Part shown: in pieces, positions 4,902 to 58,622 of the stretch
Layout: every line of letters starts with the position of its first letter
Numbering within the stretch: position 1 is the first letter of the stretch
Source: Acidobacteriota bacterium
Lineage (GTDB): Bacteria > Acidobacteriota > Vicinamibacteria > Vicinamibacterales > JAKQTR01
Assembly (NCBI GenBank): GCA_040752275.1
Contig: JBFMFH010000002.1
Location: 5,958 to 69,957 of the forward strand
Direction: 5' to 3'
Length of the DNA: 64,000 bases
The notes under the pieces: generated by a model
Seen by the model: the letters and a program-made list of their open reading frames with translations, nothing else
Database searches by the model: none
Told to the model about the DNA's origin: nothing
Position numbers and translations under genes: made by a program

Positions 4902-6062
4902 GTGAAAATCCACGAATACCAGGGTAAGGCGATTCTCGCCAGGTACGGCGTCCCGGTGCCGCGCGGTGACGTCGCCTTCAACGCAGACGAGGGCGTCAAG
5001 ATCGCGCAGCGGCTCGGGCTTCCCGTCGTGGTCAAGGCTCAGATTCACGCCGGCGGCCGCGGCAAAGGCGGCGGCGTGAAGGTGGCCAGGACGATGGAGG
5101 AGGTCGAGAAGCAGACGGCCGCGATGCTGGGCATGAAGCTGGTCACGCACCAGACCGGACCCGAGGGAAGGGTCGTCCAACGCGTGCTCGTCGAACAGGG
5201 CGTCACAATCGCCCGCGAGCTGTACCTCGGCCTCGTGCTCGACCGCGCCGCCCAGCGCCCCGTGCTGATGGCCAGTCCGGCCGGCGGCATGGAGATCGAG
5301 AAGGTCGCCGAGGAGACACCGCACCTCATCTTCAAGGAGTACATCCACCCGACGGCCGGCTTTGAGCCGTTCCAGGCCAAGAAGCTCGCCTTCGCCCTTG
5401 GCCTCCAGGGTCCGGCTGTCGGCCAGGCGGTGAAGATGATGACGGCGCTCTACGAGGCCTTCACGGCCAACGATGCCTCGCTCGTCGAGATCAACCCGCT
5501 CATCGTTACCGGCGACGGCAACCTGCTCGCCCTCGACGCCAAGATGAACTTCGACGACAACGCGCTCTACCGGCATCCGGGGCTGCGCGAGTTGCGCGAC
5601 CTGAGCGAAGAGGACCCGCTCGAGGTCGAGGCCTCGAAGTTCTCGCTGAACTACATCCGCCTCGACGGAACCATCGGCTGCATGGTGAACGGCGCCGGCC
5701 TCGCCATGGCGACGATGGACATCATCAAGCTGGCGGGCGGCGAACCGGCCAACTTCCTCGATGTCGGCGGAGGCGCGACGGCGGAGCAGATCCGCAACGC
5801 GTTCAAGATCCTCATGTCCGACACCAACGTGAAGGCTGTGCTCATCAACATCTTCGGCGGCATTCTGCGCTGCGACGTCCTCTCCGAGGGAGTGATCGCG
5901 GCCGTCAAGGAACTCTCGGTCAAGGTGCCCATCGTCATTCGTATGGAGGGGACGAACGTCGAGACGGGCAAGAAGATGCTCATGGAGAGCGGCTTGAACT
6001 TCTCCACGGCCGACACGATGGCCGAGGCCGCGACGAAGGTCGTCGCGCTCGCGCGCGGGTGA
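4902..6062 (+). CDS. sucC: succinate--CoA ligase (ADP-forming) subunit beta
   Basis: Canonical N-terminus (V)[19 protein letters not shown] starting at GTG 4902. The upstream 66 codons of the ORF are an R/P-rich shadow. ATP-grasp fold; the gene is followed by sucD. Confidence 0.95.
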
Positions 6063-45552: not shown

Positions 45553-45627
45553 AGGAACTGCGGGATCCGGCGCGGAGTCCACTCGACATCCTGTGGGGGC
45601 GTGTGGGACGGTGACGGGGCCGGAGGG

Positions 45628-45674
45628 GCGTGGTGGGCGCTAGTGGATTCGAACCACTGACCCCCGCCGTGTGA
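45628..45674 (-). repeat. distal att repeat: orphan copy of the 3' half of tRNA-Val (CCA end through the anticodon)
   Basis: Base-for-base identical to 50914-50960. The sequences diverge immediately after gtga. Confidence 0.9.
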
Positions 45675-46057
45675 CGTCGGACTGGTTCGGCTGTCTGTGC
45701 GCTGGGGATCCCGCGCAGGCCGAGCAGTCGTTGATCGGGCTGGTGGCGCGCGTGCCCGCCGAGGTCGGCGCGCCGTCTGCGGAACGCCCGGATCCGATCG
45801 CGCGGTTGCGGGATGAGCTCGCCACATTGGAGGCGGCCGAAGAGCAGGCCGTTGACAACGCGATTTCGGCCGGCGTGATCGTCGCCCATCGGCCCGCGGT
45901 GGTTCAGCGGCGCGAGAACGAGAAGCGCCGGCGCGAGCTCGACGAACAGGCCGTGGCCCGCCGCGCCGAACGCCAGCGCGCCCTCGATGCGCAGTTTGGC
46001 AACCAGGCGCCGCGCGCGATGGCGAGTCAGTACATCGCGTCGAATGGGAAGCTCTGA
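45671..46057 (+). CDS. hypothetical protein (island)
   Basis: GC3-rich ORF with a charged coiled-coil-like C-terminus. Its stop lies 2 nt before the next ATG. The start is uncertain. Confidence 0.35.
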   Translation: MTSDWFGCLCAGDPAQAEQSLIGLVARVPAEVGAPSAERPDPIARLRDELATLEAAEEQAVDNAISAGVIVAHRPAVVQRRENEKRRRELDEQAVARRAERQRALDAQFGNQAPRAMASQYIASNGKL

Positions 46058-46832: not shown

Positions 46833-47196
46833 ATGCGCACCGACCCCAAGCCGCAAGTTCGCACTTGCCTCGATTGCGGTCGGCGCTTTGAGATCAGCGT
46901 CGACGAGTAACGATTCCTCCGAGAGCGTGAGACGGCCGATGGGCTGCCGTGGGAATTGCCCGCGCGGTGTTTCGAATGCCAGCATGAACGGCGCCGCGCG
47001 TTGCAACGCATCAGCGCGGACGCGGAGGCGAAGGACTACCGCTTCAGGTGCGTCAACCTGCTCGGCGGCATTCGTCTTCACGGCGGATGATGTCGAGCAC
47101 TTTCGTGCGCGCGGTCACTGCTAGCCAAAGCGGTGCCCGGCCTGTCGCGTGGCGCGCCGATCGTCGACACCCGTTTCGACAAGGAGCTCATCGTGA
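46833..47196 (+). pseudogene. double CxxC...CxxC zinc-ribbon protein, inactivated (TAA, +1 frameshift, TAG)
   Basis: MRTDPKPQVRTCLDCGRRFEISVDE-TAA(46908)-RFLRERETADGLPWELPARCFECQHERR...CVN / frameshift / CSAAFVFTADDVEHFRARGHC-TAG(47122)-PKRCPACRVARRS. The final TGA overlaps (GTGA) the next gene's start. Confidence 0.55.
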
Positions 47197-47567
47197 ACGT
47201 GAATCAGCCGTTTCCCCCAAAGTATCTCCGGCCGGCGGACGTGGGCGACACGTCGCCCGCCGTGACCATCGAGCGCGTCGAGGTCGAGGAAGTCGGGCGA
47301 ACGAAGGAAGTCAAGCCGGTCGTGTACTTCGCCGGCAGGACGAAGGGGTTGATCCTCAACCGGACGAACGCCCGGAAGATCGAAGAGCTTGTCGGCTCCG
47401 CCGAAACCCACGACTGGCCGGGGAATCGCATCCGGCTCTGCGTGTCTGCCGTCGAGTTCGGCGGCGAGACGGTCGACGCGTTGCGCATCAAGCCGGCGGG
47501 GCCGTCCGCGGCGATGGCGCCGACACCGCCCGTGCGACGGCCCGCCCCGGCTGACGACGTGACGTGA
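47193..47567 (+). CDS. phage-type small hypothetical protein
   Basis: AAGGAG is 6 nt before GTG 47193. PPKYLRPADVGD...VVYFAGRTKGLILNRTNARKIEELVGSAETHDWPGNRIRL resembles small conserved prophage proteins (from memory). Confidence 0.55.
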   Translation: MNVNQPFPPKYLRPADVGDTSPAVTIERVEVEEVGRTKEVKPVVYFAGRTKGLILNRTNARKIEELVGSAETHDWPGNRIRLCVSAVEFGGETVDALRIKPAGPSAAMAPTPPVRRPAPADDVT

Positions 47568-47860: not shown

Positions 47861-47975
47861 CGTGGCGCCCGAAGTGGAGTGTCCGGCGAGGTCTCCCGCC
47901 GCGGCTGTCGTGGCCGAGCGCGGCGGAGACGGGGGACTTGACGCGCATAAGGAAACCGCTTTATGCTCTGCTGTG

Positions 47976-48158
47976 ATGGCGCGTAAGCTGACGAACTTCT
48001 GGATCGATGCGGACCTGGCGGCCGGGCTGCACGACGTGAAGAACCGTGAGGGGATTCCGGTCGGAGAGCAGATCCGGCGGGCCGTGCGCGCGTGGCTGAT
48101 TGAGAAGCGCGTCATCAAGGCGGAGCGCAAGCGGGCGGGCACCCGCCGGCGCTCCTGA
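47976..48158 (+). CDS. ribbon-helix-helix (CopG-like) DNA-binding protein
   Basis: MARKLTNFWIDADLAAGLHDVKNREGIPVGEQIRRAVRAWL shows a beta-strand, helix, helix pattern. 60 aa. Confidence 0.55.
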   Translation: MARKLTNFWIDADLAAGLHDVKNREGIPVGEQIRRAVRAWLIEKRVIKAERKRAGTRRRS

Positions 48159-48495: not shown

Positions 48496-49161
48496 TCACC
48501 CGGCGTCGAGTCTTGATATGATCAGTTCCCGTGTGAGGTCAATTGCGGCGCGCACGTCTTCAACCTCAAACTCGTCCCACTGTGCGTGCGTTGCCTTTGT
48601 GCGAACGTCGGCGGCAGCGCGAGCGCGCTTCGCCTTCACAGCCGAGAGATCGCCTCGAGAAGCGAGCTCCGAGATCAGGCCATCAAGCTTCCGGTCCTTC
48701 TCGATGAGGCCGGCCTTGCGGCAGGCGCGGCGAAGCACATCCTCAAACACGACACCCGCGATTACACCCGCCTCGTTCTTTCGAGATGCCTCGAGGTAGG
48801 CGTCTGCGTGATCCAGGAAGTCATCAAGAGTCTCCGCCCGAGCACGATCGGCAACAGACGCGAGTAGTCCCGCATCGGCGTCGGCTGCCAGCGCCTGCAG
48901 CACGGCGGCAAGCTCACCAACCGCGTGGTTGACTTCAAAGGCGTGGTCTGCGGTCGCTATGCGATCGGCTTTCTGTCTATAGGGTGCTTCCGGGCTGGGG
49001 CAAACGAAATGAACAGTATTCTGCGCGGCTGTCAGCCAGGCGGAGCACGCTGCCTGCTGGTGTTGGTCAGTGCACTGGCCATACTGGTCACCGACAGCCA
49101 GACGTCCACTCTCGGCGAGGAGTTGCGCGATACGCTGGCGGACGACTTCTTCAATCGCCAT
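48496..49161 (-). CDS. hypothetical protein with a C-terminal HEPN-like (Rx4H) helical domain
   Basis: RTKATH motif is encoded at 48586-48603, within ...GVVFEDVLRRACRKAGL...LISELASRGDLSAVKAKRARAAADVRTKATHAQW.... GGAG is 9 nt before ATG 49161, with an alternative GTG at 49191. Third gene of the operon. Confidence 0.6.
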   Translation of the reverse strand: MAIEEVVRQRIAQLLAESGRLAVGDQYGQCTDQHQQAACSAWLTAAQNTVHFVCPSPEAPYRQKADRIATADHAFEVNHAVGELAAVLQALAADADAGLLASVADRARAETLDDFLDHADAYLEASRKNEAGVIAGVVFEDVLRRACRKAGLIEKDRKLDGLISELASRGDLSAVKAKRARAAADVRTKATHAQWDEFEVEDVRAAIDLTRELIISRLDAG

Positions 49162-49236
49162 AGCTGGAAACTCCGATAGGCCAAGCGGCACCCTGCTTCA
49201 CGTCGTGAAGGAGTGGTCGGGCGCAGCGCGCTGTGA

Positions 49237-49941
49237 TCATGTGGCACCAGGCCGATCTCGGAAGTCGGGCCACTCACGCATGTGGCTCGCGACCCCATCA
49301 ATGGCGTTGGTCAGGATGCCCGCAAACCCAATTCTCGACGCGATTTCCTTCTCATAGAATGGAAGCTTCTTCGGATCAAAGATCGGGCCGAGATGGTGTG
49401 TCCCTCGGCCGATCAGGTCACCCATCGCGATGATGGTCGGATGACTCATCTTGTTGTAGAAACGCTTCGCCTGTGTAGCCACCTCGAGCGCTTCTCGGTT
49501 CAGGCCGAGTTCCTCCGAACGCTTGACGAGCAGGTCTATCGACCTATGAACGGGAAACCGACCTAACCACGCCCGCTGCCGGTACGGCCAGTCGTACTTC
49601 GCGAAGAGGAAGGCCGAGGCAAGAGCCTCCAACGCCTGCCTCTGCGCTCCTCCCGCCATGGTGATGTGCTCGAGGATCAGGAATCTCATCGACAGGAGCA
49701 TCCGAGCCACGACCGTGAAGAGCGCCCCGACAACGGTGGCGCTGTCCTGGTCCCTCGCGAACGTGCTCTCGAACGTTCGCCATCGGTCGTAGACTTCCGC
49801 CGTGGCGGTCTCGAAGCTACTCACTTGAACCTGAAAGTGCTCCAGGAACAGGCGTTCTGTCTCTTCGTCCTGTCGGCCGCGGAGCGCAGCCTGCACTGCG
49901 GCAAGCGCGGACTTGTCCAGCATCGGTTCGTCGTCTGCCAT
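49237..49941 (-). CDS. hypothetical protein (234 aa); faint resemblance to AbiV/DUF5677-type helical proteins
   Basis: Middle gene of the operon. ...HITMAGGAQRQALEALASAFLFAKYDWPYRQRAW...RFYNKMSHPT. Local G+C is low (27 of 60 at 49321-49380). Confidence 0.55.
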   Translation of the reverse strand: MADDEPMLDKSALAAVQAALRGRQDEETERLFLEHFQVQVSSFETATAEVYDRWRTFESTFARDQDSATVVGALFTVVARMLLSMRFLILEHITMAGGAQRQALEALASAFLFAKYDWPYRQRAWLGRFPVHRSIDLLVKRSEELGLNREALEVATQAKRFYNKMSHPTIIAMGDLIGRGTHHLGPIFDPKKLPFYEKEIASRIGFAGILTNAIDGVASHMREWPDFRDRPGAT

Positions 49942-49974
49942 GAACGATCTCGCGCTCGGATGACACCGCTGTGG

Positions 49975-50697
49975 CTACCGCATCGGCGGTCTACTCAGAT
50001 CGTCGGCCTCTCCTGTACGCGGCAACCGGCCGGACGATAGCACGGACCGGTAGCGCTCGATCGACTGCGAGAGCGCTTCAGAAGAGAGCGCACACTCCAG
50101 AAGCACCTCTTCGGCCCTCGCAAGGCCGGTGACACGATCCGGCTGCTCCAGGGCGGCCGCCAGCCTTCTTTGCATCGCGTCGCGGGCCGCCGTGTCGGTC
50201 GGCGCATGCCCCGGAGACGGCTTCCACGCGGCGGTGGCATTCGCGAGAATGCCCTTTCGAAGATCCCAATCGACCGTCACCGTAATCGGGCGCACCAGTT
50301 CCTCTCGGCGTGGCTTGGACACCCCGACGTTGTCTAGGAATCTCTCGAGGTCGTCCCGTCGCCGAAGCATCCTCTCTTGATGATCTCCACCAGCCCAACG
50401 GTTCTCAGACACGATACTGGCAGCCGAAAAGTCCGCCACCCCGATTGCGATGGTCTGGAGCTCCTCGGCCTTCGCGTAGATGTCTGACTTCGCCTGTTGG
50501 ATCTCCCGCAACGTCACGCGGAGGTTCTTAAGATCGAGCACCTGCAGCATGTCGATCCTTGAGATAGCCACAGCCAACAGCAGAGTTGAGACGACGAGCG
50601 TCGTGTACCAGCCGGATCCGAGAGAGCCTGATTGGAGCAGGTGGGTGAAAAGGGCCACGCCGCACACGCCGAGACAGATAGCGATTACGTTGGACAT
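49975..50697 (-). CDS. membrane protein: two N-terminal TM helices plus a coiled-coil/helical cytoplasmic domain
   Basis: VIAICLGVCGVALFTHLL and WYTTLVVSTLLLAVAISRI. GGGGGAGAG SD upstream of ATG 50697. First gene of the operon, adjacent to tRNA-Val. Confidence 0.6.
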   Translation of the reverse strand: MSNVIAICLGVCGVALFTHLLQSGSLGSGWYTTLVVSTLLLAVAISRIDMLQVLDLKNLRVTLREIQQAKSDIYAKAEELQTIAIGVADFSAASIVSENRWAGGDHQERMLRRRDDLERFLDNVGVSKPRREELVRPITVTVDWDLRKGILANATAAWKPSPGHAPTDTAARDAMQRRLAAALEQPDRVTGLARAEEVLLECALSSEALSQSIERYRSVLSSGRLPRTGEADDLSRPPMR

Positions 50698-50913
50698 CTC
50701 GCCGCTCTCCCCCTTTCGGTACGACGGCGCCCCCGCAGCCGGGACCGATGCTCAGGCCGGCCTGAAGGGGAGATGATTGCTTGGCACGTGCCGCCCGTCA
50801 AGCAGGTCCCTGCGCCGTCCTTTCACGCTGCACCACCATTGCACCACGGCCGGAACCACGGGTCCGTTGTCATTTGGAACGCGTGCCCGTAAGTGCTTCG
50901 TGTTCTAGGAGAA

Positions 50914-50960
50914 GCGTGGTGGGCGCTAGTGGATTCGAACCACTGACCCCCGCCGTGTGA
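50914..50960 (-). repeat. proximal att repeat (inside the intact tRNA-Val)
   Basis: Identical to 45628-45674. Confidence 0.9.
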
Positions 50961-50991
50961 AGGCGATGCTCTACCGCTGAGCCAAGCGCCC
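50917..50991 (-). tRNA. tRNA-Val (anticodon CAC), CCA encoded
   Basis: Hand-folded cloverleaf: acceptor GGGCGCT/AGCGCCC, D stem GCTC/GAGC, anticodon stem TCGCC/GGCGG with loop TTCACAC, T arm AGTGG-TTCGAAT-CCACT, discriminator A, CCA. Confidence 0.9.
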
Positions 50992-55659: not shown

Positions 55660-55947
55660 TCACTCACGTCGCGGTCGTCTGTTCAGGCTCGTCGACCGCG
55701 CACGCCGGCGATGTAGCGGCGTATCGTCCGCTCGTCGAGGTGCCCAAGCGGGCTTCGGTCCCCATGTCTTGCCAGGGTGGTAATAGACCACCACCCGTCG
55801 ACGGGTGGCTGCGTTCCCACCCTTGACGTAACCCAACGTGGCCCCGGATTTCGATTCGAGTATCCAGCCGTCCCGTTCTGATGCCCGCCTGAGCGCGTCT
55901 GCGGAGAGGCTTCTTACCTGGCTCCAGACGTGTGAGGGATGGGCCAC
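55660..55947 (-). pseudogene. HicA-like toxin ORF whose 3' end runs into a remnant of an integrase C-terminus
   Basis: The N-terminal part LSADALRRASERDGWILESKSGATLGYVKGG...RRVVVYYHPGKTWGPK is HicA/YcfA-like. In another frame, 55664-55740 encodes SPLGHLDERTIRRYIAGV, which is paralogous to the integrase end at 56380-56450. Confidence 0.4.
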
Positions 55948-56333
55948 TGCAGCTCCAAGTTGCGAAGGAGGGCGCCCACGGGGACCTGGAACTGCTCGTG
56001 TTGTCTCTCCTGCTCAGTCGTCAGATCCGGGCCGATGGGGAAGGGATCCCCATGCTTGACCAGTGACATCAGATATAGCTCGACGGCTTCTTTGGCGTTC
56101 TCCAACGCCTCCGGAACGGAACCGCCGGAAACATGCAGGCCCTTCAGCGCCGGGCAGAATGCGTGAAACTCGTCGCCATCGGGCTCGACGATCACCGCCA
56201 CCGCCAGCTTGACTTGGCAGTCGGGCTGCGACGGTCTACCAAGCAGATGCAAGAGGTTCATGGTCGAAATCACCCTGTCTATCCTATATATCGTTTGACG
56301 CCTGTCAAGGATTAGCGGTTTCAGCGTCCTCAT
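55914..56333 (-). CDS. HicB-like antitoxin (UPF0150 / HicB_lk_antitox fold)
   Basis: VAVIVEPDGDEFHAFCPALKGLHVSGGSVPEALENAKEAVELYLMSLVKHGDPFP. Start is either ATG 56333 (ATGA overlap with the integrase stop) or ATG 56261. Confidence 0.6.
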   Translation of the reverse strand: MRTLKPLILDRRQTIYRIDRVISTMNLLHLLGRPSQPDCQVKLAVAVIVEPDGDEFHAFCPALKGLHVSGGSVPEALENAKEAVELYLMSLVKHGDPFPIGPDLTTEQERQHEQFQVPVGALLRNLELQWPIPHTSGAR

Positions 56334-57010: not shown

Positions 57011-57223
57011 GTAACTAGATAACCTTGGGGTGTGCACGAAGAAAAACCGAAAGTCGCGTGCGCGATCTCTCCGGACTGGAAGAAACCCCCGGCGAGCCTG
57101 GGGCCTCGCGATGCGGCGACGGCGGCTTCCGCCTCTTCCGCCTCGGGGTGTGTTGACAACGTCCGCCGAATCTGTCACGGTCTTGCGTTGGCCGCAGCGA
57201 CCCACTCATACGACGACACACTC

Positions 57224-58213
57224 ATGGCGATCCTCCTGAATGACGTTGAGCTTAGGAAGCTGCTTGGGACTGTCATCCAGGATGGCGACGCGGAATCGAT
57301 TCGGCCGAATTCGTACGTGTTGCGTCTGGGGCCAATGGGCGAGTTTCTGAACACGGGCAAGGAATTCGAGCTGGGGGACAAGAAGAAGGGAATCCGGATT
57401 GCGCCCGGACACTCGGTCGCGGTCACTGGCCTCGAGACGATCGACTTCCGGCTAGATACGGTCAGGAAGGTATTCCCTGAAAGCGATCTCCATGGCATCG
57501 TAAGCCCAACCACCGACCTGTCACGCGAAGGGATCGTGGCTCCGACTACCCAGATTGACGCGGGCTTCTTCGGCACCCTCAATTGGACTCTCACAAATAC
57601 GTCAAGCGAGGAGCGGCGCTTCGTCCACAAGGAACGGATCTTTCGACTGGCGATCTTCAGACTCGAGAAGGACGAGCGGCCGGAGTCCCTGTACGGTGGG
57701 ACCTATCAGAGCCGGATCGGGTATGTTCGCTCTCAGCGACGAGGTGCGCCCACTGGCATGAAGGAGGTCGAGTGGGAAGATGGTCAGGCAAAGGGAAGCC
57801 CAGAGGATCTGCTCGACAATCTGGTGAAGTCTGGGTATCCGTGGCACGCGCTAGGTCAGCGGCTGATGCTGATCGACCAGCAATTCAAGTCGGTGACGCT
57901 TGAGTACGCCGATCTACGCGAGGCTATTGAGCGTCTGACTGCAGACCTTTCTGCCGTACGTGAACGTCAGGCCGGGATCAGCGACACCGTGCGCGCCGTC
58001 CTGCGGGAGGAGGCCAACGCCTTACAGAACCGATGGTTGCTCGGTTCAGGCTCCTTACTGTTCGCAGCACTCGGGGCCGGCGTGTCGATCCTCGCGAGTG
58101 ACGCTGCTCGTGGGTTTGTGACGCAATATGGCGTCATCGTTGGACTGGCGATCGTCCTGCTAAGCCTAGTAAGCCTAGGCTCTCTGTTCCTCCAATCGAG
58201 ACTGCGACGTTAG
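57224..58213 (+). CDS. dCTP deaminase/dUTPase-fold domain fused to a coiled coil and two C-terminal TM helices
   Basis: MAILLNDVELRKLLGTVIQDGDAESIRPNSYVLRLG... IAPGHSVAVTGLE...SPTTDLSREGIVAPTTQIDAGFFGTLNWTLTNTS...RIFRLAIFRLE...YGGTYQSRIG parallels E. coli Dcd as I remember it. The C-terminus has WLLGSGSLLFAALGAGVSILA and YGVIVGLAIVLLSLVSLGSLFL. The upstream 64 codons were rejected. Confidence 0.7.
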   Translation: MAILLNDVELRKLLGTVIQDGDAESIRPNSYVLRLGPMGEFLNTGKEFELGDKKKGIRIAPGHSVAVTGLETIDFRLDTVRKVFPESDLHGIVSPTTDLSREGIVAPTTQIDAGFFGTLNWTLTNTSSEERRFVHKERIFRLAIFRLEKDERPESLYGGTYQSRIGYVRSQRRGAPTGMKEVEWEDGQAKGSPEDLLDNLVKSGYPWHALGQRLMLIDQQFKSVTLEYADLREAIERLTADLSAVRERQAGISDTVRAVLREEANALQNRWLLGSGSLLFAALGAGVSILASDAARGFVTQYGVIVGLAIVLLSLVSLGSLFLQSRLRR

Positions 58214-58548: not shown

Positions 58549-58622
58549 TGGAGCGGGCTACGGGGATCGAACCCGTGTGGCTGGCTTGGGAAGCCAGAGC
58601 ATTACCACTATGCTAAGCCCGC
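58549..58622 (-). tRNA. tRNA-Gly (anticodon CCC), CCA encoded
   Basis: Hand-folded: acceptor GCGGGCT/AGCCCGC, D stem GCAT/ATGC, anticodon stem CTGGC/GCCAG with loop TTCCCAA, T arm ACGGG-TTCGATC-CCCGT, discriminator T, CCA. Confidence 0.9.

Follow-up and report, generated by a model that had tools for sequence, protein, structure and literature searches.

Three co-oriented genes beside an intact tRNA-Val gene, i.e., gene 1, gene 2 and gene 3 at positions 48,496–50,697 of a 64,000-nucleotide stretch of DNA (hereafter the window; contig JBFMFH010000002.1 of GenBank assembly GCA_040752275.1, from an Acidobacteriota bacterium), are probably three solo genes, each independently mobile, that lie stacked in a decayed island linked to the tRNA gene, rather than a three-component system. 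The HEPN (DUF4145-like) domain of gene 3 is genuine and its R-x4-H motif is invariant, and gene 3 is the only one of the three genes with an assignable mechanism. A first-pass annotation of the letters had taken the block for a candidate defence or abortive-infection system. Two parts of that proposal have held, i.e., the HEPN nature of gene 3 and the foreign, tRNA-linked character of the cargo, whereas the part that joins the three genes into one system has not. The combination had also not been recognised there as a named system, and none of the three genes is classified by PADLOC, Pfam, NCBIfam or PHROGs.

The reading of the block as separate genes is carried by the distribution of their homologues. 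A total of 50 loci was collected through gene-based look-ups, a genome scan, a viral scan, a metagenome scan (with a closer gene-2 alignment) and plasmids, and 47 of them hold a full-length or near-full-length homologue of one gene. Forty-four loci were searched with tblastn and with profile hidden Markov models (HMMs) of all three families, and six later loci, three of which have no full-length member of any family, with the profile HMMs only. The first-pass annotation had named beforehand a lack of co-occurrence among the homologues as an outcome that would speak against the proposed system, and this is what was found: each of the 47 loci holds exactly one family, a second family is present at none of them (0/47), and all three occur together only in the window. 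Among 24 distinct gene-3 loci, 21 offer at least 800 bp of upstream DNA, and gene 2 is in none of these. Likewise, no gene 1 is present at the seven of nine gene-2 loci with at least 800 bp upstream, no gene 3 at the four of nine gene-2 loci with at least 750 bp downstream, and no gene 2 at the three of four gene-1 loci with at least 800 bp downstream. The closest relative of gene 2 (74% identity, locus L029) follows an unrelated open reading frame (ORF) of 531 aa and precedes a DUF1697 gene, without either partner, and a gene-3 homologue of 70% identity (L048) has other neighbours, neither gene 1 nor gene 2. Two further close homologues stand on contigs too short for this comparison: one of gene 3 (73%, L049), on a 1.4-kb contig with less than 650 bp upstream, where the upstream ORF is truncated at the edge of the contig and shows no match to any of the three families, and one of gene 1 (69%, L050), with about 45 bp downstream. 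The families also differ about 100-fold in size: gene 3 has more than 1,225 homologues, gene 2 has 10 close ones and gene 1 has 11 close ones.

No other partner replaces the missing ones. When all neighbouring ORFs of 25 aa or more were compared with each other, over 23 gene-3 loci and also over the gene-1 and gene-2 loci, no conserved partner emerged. An ORF of about 520 aa that recurs upstream of gene-2 homologues was considered as a partner and rejected, as its four instances are unrelated (an Mrr-like protein, an RNxxxH protein and, twice, GuaA). The genes downstream of gene-1 homologues show no relationship among themselves or with gene 2 or gene 3, and PDB searches of these downstream ORFs were uninformative. 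Around the homologues are housekeeping genes (guaA, NAD synthase, aminoacyl-tRNA synthetases), and defence or mobile genes (TIR_2, DUF559, MTES_1575 restriction endonuclease, methyltransferases, PD-T7-4, PD-T4-10_B, HEC-01A, AriA, DruA, HEPN_AbiU2, IS110, integrases, and VapC and RES toxins). Loci that hold a single family in such heterogeneous contexts give the pattern of independently mobile single-gene modules that gather in variable regions.

Three ORFs at these loci deserve separate mention. The 531-aa ORF (L029:57-1652) that precedes the closest homologue of gene 2 has a C-terminal RTIRNVFVHS, and a 453-aa ORF downstream of a gene-1 homologue (L001:5126-6487) has YGARSSIVHG, both of which resemble the HEPN Rx4H motif by eye; other HEPN-type genes may thus cluster with the gene-1 and gene-2 families. 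At L048, a 145-aa ORF with multiple transmembrane helices (L048:1205-1642), which bears no relation to gene 1, precedes the gene-3 homologue by 38 bp, which makes it a second case of a small membrane protein ahead of a gene-3-type HEPN gene.

The gene-3 protein itself finds nothing significant in Pfam (no match at E ≤ 10), PADLOC, NCBIfam or PHROGs, and its family profile finds no match among PDB sequences. Its family, however, is large, with more than 1,225 clusters (90% identity) at E ≤ 1e-3, the best 120 of which are all about 220 aa long, 61–73% identical and spread over many phyla. The family ranges over Acidobacteriota, Proteobacteria, Desulfobacterota, Nitrospirota, Marinimicrobia, Zixibacteria and KSB1 and extends to Acinetobacter plasmids; the loci from the genome scan include Marinimicrobia, Beta-, Gamma- and Alphaproteobacteria, Desulfobacterota, Zixibacteria and KSB1 among their sources. 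No homologue was found in 50,697 GenBank phage genomes. Four viral or proviral contigs of IMG/VR (L035–L038) encode gene-3 homologues of 34–60% identity.

The HEPN assignment of gene 3 is supported by its conserved motif, by the Pfam matches of its relatives, by its predicted fold and by a member already named as such. The first-pass annotation had singled out RTKATH as an Rx4H motif of HEPN type. By itself this match is not significant, because shuffling the gene-3 protein produces an Rx4H in 43% of cases; what lends it weight is the conservation of the motif together with the fold. Across 23 aligned, diverse members, with identity down to 29%, R187, H192 and E140 are invariant (23/23), and an FDDFLDHA..Y motif is invariant or nearly so. 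Distant members have RNxxxH in place of RTKATH, and RNxxxH is the classical form of the HEPN motif. When the same 23 members were scanned one by one against Pfam, DUF4145 was matched by 13 (best E 1.2e-4), HEPN PF05168 by seven (best E 1.4e-5) and a HepT-like family by one, all of these being E-value matches not shown to reach the gathering scores. In addition, one database homologue carries a precomputed PF13643 (DUF4145) call. A full-length member, WP_005065062.1 (HMM E 5e-37), is named "HEPN domain-containing protein" by the Prokaryotic Genome Annotation Pipeline (PGAP). It is encoded on 6–11-kb Acinetobacter plasmids (e.g., L045, Acinetobacter baumannii NZ_CP133710.1, 4088-4762), where it adjoins a pair of RelE/ParE and helix-turn-helix genes, and it offers a cultured, tractable source for the family.

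The AlphaFold2 (AF2) model of gene 3 is all-helical, with a predicted local distance difference test (pLDDT) score of 91.4. It consists of an N-terminal four-helix domain (about residues 1–96; helices 3–21, 33–53, 60–70 and 74–96) and a C-terminal HEPN domain (about residues 99–218; helices 99–124, 128–149, 159–168, 174–191 and 200–218). E140 is on helix 2 of the C-terminal unit, and R187/H192 are at the end of its penultimate helix, at the helix-3/helix-4 junction, which is the arrangement given for HEPN domains (PMC3710099). In a Foldseek search of this model against the PDB, the credible matches were almost exclusively HEPN proteins, i.e., HepT (7ae9, 7ae8, 5yep, 6m6w) and 1ufb, 1o3u, 2hsb and 1wol, with a probability of 0.9–1.0, target TM-scores of 0.5–0.65 and E-values of 0.05–2.

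Gene 2 belongs to a separate, fairly large, unnamed helical family that is found in mobile or defence-type contexts. Its protein has nothing significant in Pfam, PADLOC, NCBIfam or PHROGs. Besides the close homologues counted above, an exhaustive profile search gave 450 clusters (50% identity, E ≤ 1e-3), mostly full-length and about 220 aa long. Across 58 diverse members G97, R101, E105, H167 and Y196 are invariant, and an Rx4-6H motif is not conserved in the family. The AF2 model is all-helical (pLDDT 82); E105 lies within a helix, and H167 lies where helices meet, beside a low-confidence segment. The resemblance to AbiV/DUF5677-type proteins suggested in the first-pass annotation is faint and not significant: DUF5677 is matched by 2 of the 58 relatives at E 0.012, none of the relatives matches PADLOC (AbiV models included), a search of PDB chains with the family profile is empty at E ≤ 10, and AbiV, whose solved structure 9bj7 is in the Foldseek PDB set, is not among the top 50 matches of the gene-2 model. 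The only Foldseek matches of good probability are the HEPN proteins 2hsb and 1ufb (probability 0.9), at a low significance of E about 1. A profile–profile comparison of the gene-2 and gene-3 families showed no relation. From the model, gene 2 could possibly be a very divergent HEPN-like fold.

Gene 1 is a member of a rare orphan family with two transmembrane helices. As expected from the first-pass annotation, its hydropathy places both near the N-terminus: hydrophobic 19-mers start at residues 1–5 and 32–36, corresponding to helices at about residues 1–23 and 32–54, and the helical region beyond them is predicted to be cytoplasmic. The 11 homologues are 33–69% identical and conserve the N-terminal transmembrane region. 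No match to gene 1 was found in Pfam, PADLOC, NCBIfam, PHROGs, the PDB or plasmids.

The arrangement of the block in the window (Table 1) agrees with what the first-pass annotation had described, i.e., three co-oriented minus-strand genes beside tRNA-Val in a repeat-bounded island of lower local G+C, and its coordinates, gaps and G+C counts were reproduced (27/60 at 49321–49380 in the block vs. 43/60 at 5041–5100 in the sucC region). A 58-nt direct repeat copies the 3′ half of tRNA-Val, as is expected for an element integrated in a tRNA gene, and encloses a segment of about 5.3 kb with genes 1–3 inside, adjoining the tRNA gene. The G+C content of genes 1–3 is 0.615, vs. 0.685 in the other island DNA and 0.68 in the upstream host DNA, and their G+C at third codon positions (GC3) is 0.64–0.745, vs. 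0.81–0.87 in the flanking genes. As the other part of the island is host-like in GC3, the foreign composition is specific to genes 1–3 nearest the tRNA. All three are real genes, since each has full-length homologues elsewhere and each is annotated by NCBI, as a hypothetical protein, in the source Acidobacteriota metagenome-assembled genome. No integrase was recognised among all island ORFs of at least 98 aa. An ORF at 47133–47567(+) matches the phage family phrog_21613 (E 2.3e-15), the function of which is not known, and an ORF at 47862–48158(+) has a weak ribbon-helix-helix match. The island is best read as a small, decayed, integrase-less element presumably inserted in tRNA-Val, with genes 1–3 at its tRNA-proximal end.

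Table 1. Features of the three-gene block and its island (positions in the window)
Feature	Position	Strand	Remarks
Gene 1	49975-50697	minus	240 aa; from ORF list
Gene 2	49237-49941	minus	234 aa; from ORF list
Gene 3	48496-49161	minus	221 aa; alternative GTG start at 49191 gives 231 aa
RTKATH (R187-x4-H192) of gene 3	48586-48603	minus	
Intact tRNA-Val(cac), presumed integration target	50917-50991	minus	ARAGORN and Rfam
Displaced partial copy of tRNA-Val 3′ part, far island boundary	45622-45679		93% identical to 50908-50965
Sigma-70-like promoter match upstream of gene 1	50773-50801	minus	sole one in the region
Remainder of repeat-bounded segment	45680-48495		small plus-strand ORFs, host-like GC3

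Against this background, the proposal that genes 1–3 form one defence or abortive-infection system, lineage-specific or newly assembled, in which a membrane sensor or effector acts with two HEPN-type proteins, is decidedly unlikely. Such a system would fit the co-orientation of the genes, their short gaps (33 bp between genes 1 and 2, and 45 or 75 bp, depending on the start, between genes 2 and 3), the single promoter-like site, the lack of any terminator-like site on the minus strand between them and their similarly low G+C, and it would also fit the presence of HEPN-like or defence genes beside gene-1 homologues elsewhere (AbiU2 and DruA in L026; TIR_2 and the RSSIVH ORF in L001). However, no two families are together at any of the 47 loci, nearest relatives included, genes 1 and 2 are about 100 times rarer than gene 3, which always occurs alone, and the downstream partners of gene-1 homologues are unrelated mutually and to genes 2 and 3. 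Judged by this distribution, the idea of a three-gene system appears largely refuted, and gene 3 would seem not to need genes 1 and 2. The main alternative for gene 3 is that it is a HEPN-type toxin or addiction module, or a protein of RNA processing or regulation, which mobile elements spread for their own maintenance, with genes 1 and 2 as unrelated cargo. The location of a member beside a RelE/ParE pair on the Acinetobacter plasmids, the strong sequence conservation across phyla, the many homologues beside housekeeping genes rather than in defence islands, and the absence of gene 3 from the phage genomes all agree with this explanation, which is nevertheless unlikely: no antitoxin-like neighbour of any size is conserved, defence genes are among the neighbours, and RAZR, a DUF4145 protein that acts solo, has a proven role in defence (PMC13017515). 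Finally, the block could be the remnant of a decaying prophage or satellite in which the three ORFs are functionless or degenerating, as an island without a recognisable integrase but with an ORF of a phage family might suggest. This is very improbable, as all three ORFs are intact and full-length compared with their homologues, their key residues are conserved, and their codon-position G+C is coding-like.

Several observations weigh against the reading as stacked solo genes with a HEPN effector among them. Genes 1–3 are close to each other in G+C (0.60–0.62), tightly spaced and co-oriented, with one promoter-like site and no intervening terminator, so that they may have arrived together and be co-transcribed. 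For genomic context there are no more than four distinct loci with gene 1 and nine with gene 2, and several of these are on short contigs. The Foldseek E-values that link gene 3 to HEPN proteins are weak (0.05–0.2 for the best), though the probability is about 1 and the matches are consistently HEPN. The conservation of gene 3 (60–70% identity across phyla) is atypical of fast-evolving defence genes, and RNase activity, toxicity and phage defence are putative properties of its family, proposed by analogy. As regards transcription, the three genes could possibly be transcribed together in this genome, judging from their layout, and this is no evidence of joint function; tight co-oriented triplets in islands can be stacked independent modules and not operonic systems, which is a caution for similar cases.

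With genes 1–3 read as solo genes, gene 3 is probably a self-contained RNase switched on by a trigger, analogous to RAZR/PD-T7-4. Its fold, motif and solo distribution are those described above; its dimerisation, ribonuclease (RNase) activity, regulation and defence role are suggested by HEPN biochemistry and by RAZR/PD-T7-4. By this analogy, the HEPN domains would dimerise to form a composite metal-independent RNase site with R187/H192, and the N-terminal four-helix domain would keep the protein inactive, directly or as an intermediary. An infection-associated trigger, e.g., a phage protein, would shift its oligomeric state to the active one, and the active enzyme would cut cellular RNA (tRNA, rRNA or mRNA), leading to growth arrest, i.e., abortive infection. 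A more ambitious reading, which we regard as possible rather than probable, is that gene 3 represents a widespread, uncatalogued single-protein abortive-infection RNase with a new four-helix domain as the sensor of a phage trigger, and gene 2 a second new solo family of divergent HEPN-like effectors. If they are defensive, the two families would extend the RAZR-like one-protein, trigger-activated RNases with new sensor domains. In any case, a large and highly conserved solo HEPN (DUF4145-like) family is missing from PADLOC, Pfam and NCBIfam, and both the gene-2 and the gene-3 families are cheap to test because they are single genes of about 0.7 kb each.

Elsewhere in the window, a 393-aa ORF at 57032–58213(+) lies next to tRNA-Gly(ccc) (58549–58622, minus strand), in the lowest-G+C kilobase of the window (0.596). 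Its residues 66–237 match dCTP deaminase/dUTPase chains (2yzj, E 2e-9; 9ln0, E 1.5e-7). The ORF may represent a second case of an accessory gene linked to a tRNA, perhaps one of the dCTP-deaminase defence type. Two overlapping ORFs at 55660–55947(−) and 55914–56333(−) have the look of a HicA/HicB-type toxin–antitoxin pair by eye; the 139-aa ORF of this pair has no match among PDB sequences.

Among known systems, AbiV, a lactococcal HEPN RNase with an RNA antitoxin (bioRxiv 10.1101/2024.05.05.592566), is the one that gene 2 brings to mind. Like AbiV/DUF5677 proteins, gene 2 is an all-helical solo protein of about 200–230 aa in mobile-element contexts, and its conserved His adjoins a segment of low model confidence that is probably flexible, an arrangement reminiscent of AbiV with its flexible catalytic loop (bioRxiv 10.1101/2024.05.05.592566). 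However, it is unlike AbiV in its DUF5677 matches, limited to 2/58 relatives at E about 0.01, in the lack of a PDB profile match and in the lack of a conserved Rx4-6H. An RNA antitoxin or repeat array of the kind found with AbiV or type III toxin–antitoxin systems was looked for near the genes, with no Rfam match and no tandem repeats.

The best structural matches of the gene-3 model are HepT proteins (DUF86, MNT-HEPN; 7ae9, 5yep, 6m6w), with TM-scores of 0.5–0.65 over about 130 residues. HepT and gene 3 share the Rx4-6H RNase logic, whereas their sequence identity is just 12–17%, and gene 3 was rejected as an MNT-HEPN toxin, as no MNT nucleotidyltransferase antitoxin is beside it or its homologues. 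A closer counterpart is RAZR/PD-T7-4, the ring-activated zinc-finger RNase. It is a single-gene protein made of a zinc finger and a DUF4145 domain that no longer defends the cell when its R/H pair is mutated, and ring proteins of phages switch it on (PMC13017515). Both RAZR and gene 3 are single-gene proteins of about 200 aa with a non-catalytic N-terminal domain and a C-terminal DUF4145-type HEPN domain, and both have a conserved R...H pair, no partner gene and a spread over many phyla. They differ in the N-terminal domain, which has four helices in gene 3 and is a Cys4 zinc ribbon in RAZR, and in the spacing of the motif (Rx4H vs. R146/H154). The N-terminal cysteines of gene 3 are not conserved in distant members, and neither gene 3 nor any of 22 relatives matches the PADLOC model for PD-T7-4. 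With no zinc ribbon and no match to that model, gene 3 is ruled out as a member of RAZR.

The wider family to which gene 3 is related, DUF4145, was catalogued in 2013 by Anantharaman et al. among the HEPN families, with many fusions at its N-terminus (PMC3710099). Gene 3 shares with DUF4145 (PF13643) and the HEPN clan CL0291 the helical core, the R-x4-H at the helix-3/helix-4 junction, the acidic residue on helix 2, the solo or N-terminally fused architecture and the mobile or defence contexts. It departs from the DUF4145 norm in that the protein from the window falls below every Pfam threshold, its family members reaching E-values of 1e-4 to 1e-5 only, and its N-terminal domain is none of the described DUF4145 fusion partners tested via Pfam. 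Gene 3 is thus best called a solo effector of the HEPN/DUF4145 type, the N-terminal domain of which is undescribed, and a protein of a kind that is itself already known.

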